In this document: positions 26,515-31,865 of the stretch, piece by piece | Layout: the number at the start of each line of letters is the position of its first letter | Numbering within the stretch: the stretch's first letter is position 1 | Source of the DNA: Escherichia coli | GTDB lineage: Bacteria; Pseudomonadota; Gammaproteobacteria; Enterobacterales; Enterobacteriaceae | Reading direction: 5' to 3' (one strand) | Assembly: GCF_044324785.1 (NCBI RefSeq) | Contig: NZ_CP172127.1 | Length of the DNA: 64,000 nt | Position numbers and translations under genes: made by a program | The notes under the pieces: generated by a model | Databases searched by the model: none | What the model saw: the letters and a program-made list of their open reading frames with translations, nothing else | Told to the model about the DNA's origin: nothing

Positions 26515-27174
26515 ATGGCTAACTGGTTAAATCAACTGCAATCCCTGCTTGGGCAAAGCAGTTCTTCTACCTCCTCGTCTGCGGATCAGGGATTGGGCAA
26601 ACTTTTAGTGCCTGGCGCATTAGGCGGACTGGCTGGGCTGCTGGTCGCAAATAAATCAGCACGTAAACTTCTTACGAAATATGGCACCAACGCGTTGCTG
26701 GTTGGCGGCGGAGCGGTAGCGGGTACGGTGCTGTGGAATAAATACAAAGATAAAATTCGCGCGGCGCATCAGGACGAACCGCAGTTTGGCGTGCAGAGTA
26801 CGCCGCTGGATGAGCGTACGAAACGTTTGATCCTTGCGCTGGTCTTTGCCGCTAAAAGTGATGGTCATATTGATGCCAAAGAACGTGCGGCAATCGACCA
26901 GCAATTGCGTGAAGCCGGCGTGGAAGAGCAGGGGCGTGTACTCATTGAGCAGGCAATCGAACAACCGCTGGATCCACAACGCCTGGCTACCGGGGTCCGC
27001 AATGAAGAAGAGGCGTTGGAAATCTATTTCCTGAGCTGCGCGGCTATTGATATTGACCATTTTATGGAACGCAGTTACCTGAATGCACTGGGTGACGCGC
27101 TGAAAATCCCGCAGGATGTTCGTGAAGGCATTGAACGCGATCTCGAACAGCAAAAACGCACTTTGGCGGAATAA
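26515..27174 (+). CDS. yebE: Inner membrane protein YebE (DUF533)
   Basis: 219-aa ORF recognised as YebE. Confidence 0.9.
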
Positions 27175-27306
27175 TTCCGCTCTCTGGATAGCCTGAAGTT
27201 GACGATTTCGGGCTATCCAGAACCGCACAGCCATTTGAGCAGGCTGATTTTCTCTGTCTGCATAACATTCGATATCCGCGCCATTACCTGTCATCATGTG
27301 ACTGCT

Positions 27307-27326
27307 CCCCGCCCTGTCGGGCGAGG
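27307..27326. repeat. Right-end subterminal hairpin of the IS (CCCCGCCC-tgtc-GGGCGAGG)
   Basis: Imperfect palindrome 12 nt past the tnpB stop codon; near-identical copy at the other end. Confidence 0.65.
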
Positions 27327-27337
27327 CTTCCCACTTC

Positions 27338-28507
27338 TTAAGCCGCAACCGTCTGTGTGACGGATTTACGCTGGCCTCCATGGGCAGAAACGACGAGTCC
27401 CGCCGCTTGTAATTCCAGTATGCCCTTGCGTTTGATGTTGAGCGCCGCGTTGATATCGCGGTCATGTTCAACTCCACACTCTGGACACTGCCAGATGCGC
27501 TTATGTAATGGCATCTCCGACATTTTGTGACCGCAGCAGTGGCAGGTCTTCGAACTGGCGAACCATTGATCCAGTTTCACCAGATGCACACCTTTCTCTG
27601 TTGCTTTGTATTCCAGTTTTGTGATGAATCCAGACCATCCAGCATCGCCTATCGCACGAGCCAGATGGTGATTTTTCATCATATTTGCCGTTTTCAATGT
27701 CTCGACAATTACCGCTTGGTTTTCGTCAACAATTGCGCGAGATAACTTGTGCTGGAAATCGGCACGGGCACTAGCTACCCGTTCGTGAACGGCTGCAAGT
27801 TGTATTCTGGCTTTGCGCCTGTTTGCGCTCCCTTTTTTCTTACGGGACAGTGCTTTCTGCTTCCGGCGCAGGTTGCGACTTGCATTGATTAGGTGGCGGG
27901 GACTGGCAATTTTATTGCCGTCCGATTTGATGACAAAATGCGCCAGCCCCATATCCAGCCCTGTCACATTTGATATCAGTGCGGGCTTTGCCGGCGCTTC
28001 CATCCCGTCGTCACAGAGTAACGACGCGTAGTATTTCCCGGTTGCGCTGCGGCTCAACGTGATACTTTTCAGCATTCCCGTAATTTCACGATGTAAACGC
28101 GCTTCAATCGGCAAGATTTTCGGTATTTTTATCGCACCATCAAGGACTTTTATGCCAACACAATGATAGCTCGATTGTCTGCCGTGTTTACTTTTAAAGG
28201 TTGGTTTACCTGCTTTCAGTTTCGGATTGAAAAAGTTAGAAAAAGCCACGTCGAGGTTAATTACCGCCTGCTGCAACGCAATAGAATCATATTCTTTAAG
28301 CCATCCATACCGGCGGGATTTCTTCGCCACTGCAAGCAGTGGTTTGAGGTCTTTACGCGGGTTTAAATTTACGCGGTGCCGCTGGTAAGAATGTTTCTTG
28401 ATATGCAGAGCTTTGTTGTACGCAAAACGCACTGCACCGAACTGGGCGTTGATAAATTCAGCCTGTTCTGGTGTCGGGTAGATGCGTACTTTTGTTGCTC
28501 TTAACAT
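27338..28507 (-). CDS. tnpB: TnpB (IS605 OrfB family; RuvC-like RNA-guided endonuclease)
   Basis: 389-aa ORF; RuvC-I GLDMG, RuvC-II E in VIVETL, zinc finger CHCCGH...CPECG, RuvC-III HDRDINAALNI. Confidence 0.9.
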   Translation of the reverse strand: MLRATKVRIYPTPEQAEFINAQFGAVRFAYNKALHIKKHSYQRHRVNLNPRKDLKPLLAVAKKSRRYGWLKEYDSIALQQAVINLDVAFSNFFNPKLKAGKPTFKSKHGRQSSYHCVGIKVLDGAIKIPKILPIEARLHREITGMLKSITLSRSATGKYYASLLCDDGMEAPAKPALISNVTGLDMGLAHFVIKSDGNKIASPRHLINASRNLRRKQKALSRKKKGSANRRKARIQLAAVHERVASARADFQHKLSRAIVDENQAVIVETLKTANMMKNHHLARAIGDAGWSGFITKLEYKATEKGVHLVKLDQWFASSKTCHCCGHKMSEMPLHKRIWQCPECGVEHDRDINAALNIKRKGILELQAAGLVVSAHGGQRKSVTQTVAA

Positions 28508-28563
28508 AATCAGCGCTCATTGATATAATGCTTTTATTTTAACACTTTAGGTGGATATATCAA

Positions 28564-28989
28564 TTGAGTAATCATGATGATTTACTGGCGGGATTTCTCC
28601 GCAAACGACACAGTGTCAGTAAGCTGGTTGTGCACCTTATTTTTACGACAAAGTATCGACGCAAACTATTCGACAGTCAGATGATCGCTCAGTTGCGTGA
28701 GGCTTTTGGCTCCGCTGCGGCAAAGCTTGAATGCGAAATTATTGAGATGGACGGGGAGCCAGACCATGTACACCTGCTGGTTGCCTACCCGCCAAAACTG
28801 GCGGTCAGTGTGATGGTCAATAATTTAAAATCGGTATCATCACGTTTGCTACGCCAGCAGAACGCGCATTTACGTATGCAGAGTAAAACGGGGCTTTTGT
28901 GGTCGAGATCGTACTTTGTCTGTAGCACCGGAGAGGCAACGATTGAAACGCTCAGAGCCTACGTTCAGAGTCAGTCAACACCTGATTGA
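28564..28989 (+). CDS. tnpA: IS200-type Y1 (HuH) transposase TnpA
   Basis: 141-aa ORF; TTKYRR block, HuH motif HVHLLV, C-terminal catalytic Tyr (RAYVQSQ); only in-frame start is TTG at 28564. Confidence 0.85.
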   Translation: MSNHDDLLAGFLRKRHSVSKLVVHLIFTTKYRRKLFDSQMIAQLREAFGSAAAKLECEIIEMDGEPDHVHLLVAYPPKLAVSVMVNNLKSVSSRLLRQQNAHLRMQSKTGLLWSRSYFVCSTGEATIETLRAYVQSQSTPD

Positions 28990-29022
28990 TCTTTAAAGCC
29001 CTGCGGGCTTTTCGCCTTATAT

Positions 29023-29044
29023 CCCCGCCCGCATTGGGCGAGGG
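29023..29044. repeat. Left-end subterminal hairpin of the IS (CCCCGCCC-gcatt-GGGCGAGGG)
   Basis: Near-identical to hairpin at 27307-27326; lies just beyond the tnpA terminator-like hairpin (28994-29011). Confidence 0.65.
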
Positions 29045-29118
29045 TTTACGGCGTTTTTCGCTAAGCAATGACTACCCTGTTTCGCTTGCATCTCCGGTGA
29101 GTTTTGCCACCCTTATAA

Positions 29119-31865
<2,747 letters not shown>

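Follow-up and report, generated by a model that had tools for sequence, protein, structure and literature searches.

The tnpA gene of a mobile element in Escherichia coli has no in-frame ATG ahead of its conserved core. We asked whether the single TTG found there is the true initiation codon and, if so, what keeps a non-ATG codon at that position. The gene lies in the 64-kb stretch of DNA that was analysed as a whole (the window). A first-pass annotation of the window had pointed to the TTG and to a compact divergent promoter region beside it, and had called the weak start consistent with a low-activity element. We located the gene within a complete insertion sequence with the following parts:

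27298-29060, minus strand: ISEc46, complete element of the IS200/IS605 family, 1763 bp, delimited by alignment to the empty K-12 site
27307-27326, minus strand: RE subterminal imperfect hairpin, CCCCGCCC tgtc GGGCGAGG on the plus strand, read from the sequence
29023-29044, minus strand: LE subterminal imperfect hairpin, CCCCGCCC gcatt GGGCGAGGG on the plus strand, read from the sequence
28995-29011: small second hairpin just 3' of the tnpA stop codon
28564-28989, plus strand: tnpA, 141 aa, Y1 (HUH) transposase read from a TTG start, assigned with Pfam and NCBIfam
27338-28507, minus strand: tnpB, 389 aa, RNA-guided endonuclease by domain match, ATG start at 28507-28505

Alignment with the uninterrupted yebE-ptrB spacer of K-12 placed both junctions exactly, with LE at the high-coordinate end and RE at the low-coordinate end, and comparison with this empty site revealed no target-site duplication. 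The RE and LE hairpins have matching arms, and such subterminal hairpins take the place of terminal inverted repeats. The name ISEc46 comes from RefSeq, which labels 99.9%-identical copies "IS200/IS605-like element ISEc46" and "ISEc46 family transposase", and not from the ISfinder reference sequence. The element is flanked by yebE (26515-27174) and ptrB (29146-31206). ISEc46 is upstream of ptrB, 85 bp from its start, and tnpA is oriented toward that gene. Just after yebE is a palindromic stretch (27183-27221) that is also present in K-12 and is probably the yebE terminator.

An identical 1763-bp ISEc46 was found at two further sites, the first in a chromosome and the second in a plasmid, and a gene is disrupted at both. 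The tetranucleotide TTAG abuts LE at all three independent sites (the reverse complement of 29061-29064 in the window, L081 and L083). TTAG is likely the ISEc46 target site and hence the target-adjacent motif of TnpB. Because the identical element occupies three independent sites, we conclude that ISEc46 is intact and is mobile now or was so recently. The yebE-ptrB site holds the element in about 400 of the ~445 carrier genomes, and the number of copies per carrier genome has a median of 1 and a maximum of 5. The low copy number bears out one half of the first-pass proposal of a low-activity element; the other half, an effect on TnpA output and transposition, is one that we can only infer.

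TnpA matched Pfam Y1_Tnp over residues 17-137 (5.3e-39) and NCBIfam transpos_IS200 at 141.8 bits (cutoff 55). Alignment with the solved TnpA structures of IS608, ISDra2 and Sulfolobus identified the HUH motif as His68-Val69-His70 and placed the catalytic Tyr133 opposite Tyr127 of IS608. TnpB contains the Pfam domains HTH_OrfB_IS605, OrfB_IS605 and Cas12f1-like_TNB, and its residues 6-361 matched the full NCBIfam guided_TnpB profile at 342 bits (cutoff 100). The two genes are divergent, in an IS605-type two-gene layout, and both are full length with their catalytic motifs present.

We then considered the start of tnpA in this copy:

28564-28566, plus strand: TTG, tnpA initiation codon, the only canonical in-frame start and the one annotated by PGAP

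The tnpA frame opens 3' of a TAA stop at 28540-28542, and TTG 28564 is the only ATG, GTG or TTG in that frame before the conserved Y1 core, just as the first-pass annotation had stated. The conserved block HSVSKLVVHLIFTTKYRR, which it had put about 15 codons into the frame, begins at codon 16 (CAC, 28609). The next canonical codons are GTG 28630 (Val23, within the first strand) and ATG 28681 (Met40, the first ATG). A start at either codon would cost the protein residues that correspond to the first strand in the solved TnpAs, in agreement with the earlier claim that the next Met would remove the N-terminal strand. Residue 15 of TnpA aligns with residues 7-17 of the solved chains. These homologs therefore have 6-16 residues ahead of that point, so a 14-residue N-terminal tail is normal. 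RefSeq/PGAP annotates an identical 141-aa CDS from the same TTG in near-identical copies (WP_000064873.1). The N-terminus predicted from the TTG is (M)SNHDDLLAGFLR, that is, Met-Ser-Asn-His-Asp-Asp. Judged from the frame and these alignments, TTG 28564 is the genuine and only plausible tnpA start, and the gene should not be "corrected" to its first ATG. The start itself is already in public annotation. What is new here is its conservation across the clade, the overlapping promoter layout and a polymorphism in the Shine-Dalgarno (SD) sequence.

We examined the conservation of the start codon among relatives of the element. A scan of one genome per species yielded 72 related loci. In 33 of these, TTG or GTG stands at the homologous position, followed by AGT as the second codon in 31 of the 33, and every locus that keeps the N-terminus at an identity of at least about 70% has one of these two codons. 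TTG is found in Photorhabdus, Serratia, Pluralibacter and Proteus, and GTG in Shewanella, Idiomarina, Vibrio, Endozoicomonas, Colwellia and others. A plasmid relative with ~76% identity has TTG at the same place. Among 26 loci, all 7 of the enterobacterial subclade have T as the first base of this codon and all 19 of the marine subclade have G; none has A. The alignment of homologs thus placed a TTG or GTG at the homologous position, with ATG in none of the 26 relatives. Several relatives have a stop codon just 3 codons upstream of the tnpA start, which excludes an earlier one. Within E. coli, a 39-nt probe carrying ATG found one mismatch everywhere and no perfect match, giving 0/446 records with ATG at the tnpA start. 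An ATG start occurs only in distant relatives (L041, L043, L070 and L072: two Halomonas, Photobacterium damselae and a Geobacteraceae MAG).

The mean pairwise difference at fourfold-degenerate sites in the same 26 loci is 0.65, which is close to saturation. Set against this divergence, the fixed first base in each subclade indicates that the tnpA start codon is under purifying selection, and that ATG, the strongest start, has been adopted in no sampled lineage of the clade.

Some loci recovered by the scan call for separate comment. A Collinsella MAG (L004) and a Paceibacterota MAG (L009) contain ISEc46-like tnpA genes at 99% and 91% identity; their contigs are most likely mis-binned enterobacterial sequence rather than evidence of real hosts. 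Five loci are decayed (L011, L033, L067, L069 and L002). The relative in Photorhabdus namnaonensis has an in-frame stop at tnpA codon 8, that in Vibrio sp. HDW18 has a stop in tnpB, and those in an Oceanospirillales bacterium (L067) and Endozoicomonas numazuensis (L069) have a frameshifted tnpA. A plasmid relative in E. coli combines a truncated tnpA with a frameshifted tnpB.

The region upstream of the TTG is shared by the two divergent genes, and a consensus scan together with the alignments defined the following elements in and around it:

28501-28529, plus strand: predicted sigma-70 promoter of tnpA, 11/12 consensus matches plus TG
28536-28563, minus strand: predicted sigma-70 promoter of tnpB, 10/12 consensus matches plus TG
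28510-28520: conserved 11-nt block TCAG[C/T]GCTCAT, within the tnpA promoter spacer and the predicted tnpB 5'UTR
28549-28554, plus strand: SD sequence of tnpA, AGGTGG, 9 nt upstream of the TTG, with a predicted 16S-tail duplex of -7.1 kcal/mol

The tnpA and tnpB starts are separated by 56 bp (28508-28563), the distance given in the first-pass annotation, and the TATAAT that it noticed between them is at 28524-28529, where it forms the predicted -10 element of tnpA. The rest of this promoter consists of a -35 element (TTAACA, 28501-28506) that overlaps tnpB codons 1-2, a 17-bp spacer and a TG at 28521-28522. Only two 11/12 promoter matches exist on both strands of the 64-kb window, and the tnpA promoter is the sole one with TG. 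The predicted tnpB promoter has a -35 element (TTGATA, 28563-28558) that abuts the tnpA start codon, a 16-bp spacer and a -10 element (TAAAAT, 28541-28536) within the predicted tnpA leader. Transcription is predicted to begin at ~28536 on the plus strand for tnpA and at ~28529 on the minus strand for tnpB, which would leave an overlap of only ~8 nt between the tnpB transcript and the tnpA leader. With 6 bp between the two -10 elements, the predicted starts of transcription cross, and two polymerases would have difficulty binding at the same time. The two promoters probably cannot both be occupied at once.

The claim of a compact divergent promoter region is borne out by comparison. Both promoters are conserved in position, with 9-11/12 matches, in about 24/29 relatives. 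The plus-strand -10 of the relatives ends 34-35 nt before the tnpA start, their minus-strand -35 touches the tnpA start codon, and their minus-strand -10 ends 27-28 nt before the tnpB ATG. In the E. coli element, ptrB expression could change through read-through from the predicted strong tnpA promoter in the ~400 genomes with the insertion.

The TCAG[C/T]GCTCAT block is conserved across 24 aligned loci, which is more than expected of a promoter spacer. Its distance to the -10 element is fixed despite an insertion of 11-13 nt beside the tnpB ATG in Endozoicomonas. RNAalifold found no conserved RNA structure around 28510-28520 in the tnpB 5' region (energy ~0, no covariation), the window contains no significant second copy of the block, and we matched it to no known site. 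One could read the 56-bp spacer as a conserved bidirectional switch, in which two mutually exclusive promoters and a selected near-cognate start would jointly set the TnpA:TnpB ratio, a regulator would act on the block at 28510-28520 as an operator or as an RNA site, and SD alleles would shift the element between "frozen" and "mobile" states. We consider this full scheme doubtful.

The SD sequence proved to be the variable part of the region. A control duplex with a consensus SD reached -14.7 kcal/mol, against -7.1 kcal/mol for the window copy. Most relatives have an SD-like G-rich motif 6-10 nt upstream of the tnpA start. The E. coli copies of ISEc46 are >99% identical, yet their SD is polymorphic. 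GGTAAA is found in 338 records, E. coli 042 being one carrier, and GGTGAA in 93, with a pig ETEC strain as an example. GGTGGA occurs just in the window copy and in strain N3, and G28554 is private to these two. The predicted 16S-tail duplexes of these alleles are -3.8 kcal/mol for GGTAAA, -8.3 kcal/mol for GGTGAA and -7.1 kcal/mol for GGTGGA. More than one copy was found in 8/60 records with the strongest allele, GGTGAA (two copies each), versus 0/60 with the weakest, GGTAAA (Fisher p = 0.006), in a comparison of two arbitrary samples of 60 records that is confounded by clonal relatedness. One further GGTGAA genome has a chromosomal and a plasmid copy. The weak-SD copy looks like a vertically inherited, quiescent insertion, because ~400 of ~445 carriers share the yebE-ptrB site and 0/60 are multi-copy. 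The association between SD allele and copy number fits a model in which translation initiation limits mobility; we treat it as a lead, not as proof.

We also looked for RNA-level control in the tnpA leader. A hairpin of the IS200 type that would hide the SD can be drawn over the SD and the UUG, but the fold of the single sequence (-17.7 kcal/mol) is no better than shuffled sequence (z = -0.99), and RNAalifold found 0 conserved pairs in the tnpA leader region of 21 homologs. We therefore rejected the SD-sequestering hairpin as both unremarkable and unconserved. An Rfam search of 26900-29300 returned one spurious sub-threshold microRNA match only, at the 27183-27221 palindrome. Antisense pairing between the two mRNAs was also considered. 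A 20-nt direct repeat (18/20) links 28308-28327 in tnpB with 28583-28602 in tnpA codons 7-13, and the tnpB mRNA could pair with the tnpA mRNA at 19/20 positions just 3' of the tnpA start. The corresponding match is 16/20 in Pluralibacter and 8-14/20 elsewhere, and the position of the best match is not conserved. We rejected such pairing as a feature of the clade. The repeat is probably a product of chance or specific to ISEc46.

The reading that we favor, with somewhat better than even confidence, is that this region is the internal control region of ISEc46 and that its near-cognate start has been selected to keep TnpA synthesis low. A near-consensus sigma-70 promoter would produce a tnpA mRNA with a short (~28 nt) leader that is predicted to be unstructured. 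Ribosomes would start at UUG 28564, ~9 nt downstream of a moderate SD, and make TnpA, a transposase of single-stranded DNA. A second promoter would fire in the opposite direction for tnpB, the two sitting back to back with crossing starts. Selection would have maintained the near-cognate codon, UUG here and GUG in the marine elements, throughout the clade. Most probably the codon would hold TnpA synthesis several-fold below the AUG level, which in turn may restrict excision and transposition without stopping the production of TnpB. This effect of the TTG is drawn from general data on start codons, which put initiation at GUG and UUG in E. coli at 10-100% of that at AUG.

Two observations sit uneasily with this reading. 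Each subclade keeps a single first base in the start codon although T and G both work, which hints at a nucleotide-level constraint beyond "any weak start". The near-consensus tnpA promoter, whose strength is predicted by consensus matching only, is not what a design for minimal transposase would suggest.

Other explanations must be weighed against selection for a weak start. The non-ATG codon may be a historical accident of the clade, with the TnpA level governed mainly by factors such as transcription, mRNA stability or the supply of single-stranded DNA at replication. Bacterial genes often start with GUG or UUG (14% and 3% of those in E. coli, respectively), a single T/G switch is seen in the clade with the state largely inherited, and ISEc46 appears in papers only as an entry in mobilome inventories. 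Our literature search for ISEc46, TTG starts in IS605 tnpA genes and divergent tnpA/tnpB promoters found no mechanistic work, nor any paper that describes which start codon or promoter arrangement the ISEc46 clade has. An accident would not account for saturated synonymous sites beside a position where A is never seen even though ATG would work, for the lack of ATG throughout the E. coli records, or for the correlation between SD allele and copy number, and we think it unlikely. A little less likely again is that the identity of the codon reflects a DNA-level constraint, imposed by the overlapping promoter of tnpB or by some other DNA or RNA element, and not selection on translation efficiency. 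The predicted tnpB -35 abuts the start codon in nearly all loci, the choice between T and G is constant within subclades when either would initiate, and the second codon is almost always AGT though Ser has six codons. The T/G difference between subclades, on the other hand, is accompanied by no shift in promoter position, and no conserved RNA structure covers the site in the 21 homologs. We also know of no recognized sigma-70 determinant at the base just upstream of a -35 hexamer, which counts against a role for that base in the promoter.

Two further possibilities concern the start codon itself, and the comparative data leave little room for either. Translation could begin at ATA 28555 or CTG 28585, both of which are in the tnpA frame, or at the out-of-frame ATG-ATG at 28574/28577 (+10/+13 relative to the start), which opens a 37-codon ORF in another frame and would require a frameshift. 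ATA and CTG initiate at only ~1-2% of AUG; the ATA is directly 3' of the SD, the CTG has no upstream SD, and neither codon is conserved. We rejected both as unconserved and without a usable SD, and rejected the ATG-ATG as a decoy ORF that is confined to the enterobacterial subclade, where it is a by-product of His-Asp codons. Read in the TTG frame, TnpA residues 2-15 show conservation at the amino-acid level; a different reading frame for the true start is unsupported, and translation from any of these sites is highly improbable. It is scarcely credible, finally, that this copy is decaying and inactive and that its TTG arose recently from an ATG by point mutation. We found no point in its support, and it is contradicted by the non-ATG start of all 446 E. 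coli records, by the TTG or GTG of relatives down to ~70% protein identity, by the full length and catalytic motifs of both genes, and by the identical 1763-bp copies at three independent sites. Selection for a near-cognate start that restrains TnpA thus stays our preferred explanation.

The broader interest of this arrangement comes from TnpB, which is the ancestor of Cas12 and has its home in IS200/IS605 elements. The native balance between transposase and nuclease in this family is poorly documented, since most work uses artificial promoters. The ISEc46 clade offers a simple native design that combines a weak tnpA start, back-to-back promoters and natural alleles of the ribosome-binding site whose distribution in sequenced E. 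coli seems to follow copy number. In practical terms the gain is modest: the annotated start is confirmed, and defined point mutations are given for reporter and transposition assays. We regard the control of ISEc46 tnpA as one more case of a type of regulation already known, and a fairly ordinary one.

We compared ISEc46 with systems in which transposase or start-codon control has been described. The elements IS605, IS608 and ISDra2 resemble ISEc46 in having a Y1 TnpA together with TnpB, subterminal hairpins and insertion without duplication at a short specific sequence. The tnpA and tnpB genes are divergent in Helicobacter pylori IS605 too. The ISEc46 target TTAG differs from those of IS608 (TTAC) and ISDra2 (TTGAT). 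In its predicted promoter arrangement, ISEc46 is like other compact mobile-element regions with back-to-back sigma-70 promoters, in which promoters on opposite strands share ~60 bp and their starts cross. A polymerase at one of two such overlapping promoters is expected from their geometry to exclude the other. If a repressor and operator are part of the system, the only candidate site in ISEc46 is the conserved block at 28510-28520.

The use of a sub-optimal start that is retained by selection and restrains a harmful or dose-sensitive protein has parallels in infC and pcnB, which have AUU starts. The AUU of infC is part of a feedback loop of IF3, whereas GUG and UUG count among the normal class-I starts and carry a mild penalty, and nothing in ISEc46 suggests feedback.

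The closest comparison is IS200, whose TnpA belongs to the same Y1/HUH family and whose known copy-number control had been offered as an analogy in the first-pass annotation. The analogy does not extend to mechanism. The tnpA gene of IS200, which has no tnpB beside it, starts with AUG and has a near-perfect SD that is buried in a stem-loop of the 5'UTR; its expression is further limited by the antisense RNA art200, by Hfq and by a weak promoter, and transposition rises once translational repression is relieved (PMC4513863). ISEc46, in contrast, has a UUG start, a moderate and exposed SD without a conserved stem-loop, a predicted near-consensus promoter and a divergent tnpB. Low translation of the transposase is plausibly common to IS200 and ISEc46, but the means by which the two elements would achieve it differ.
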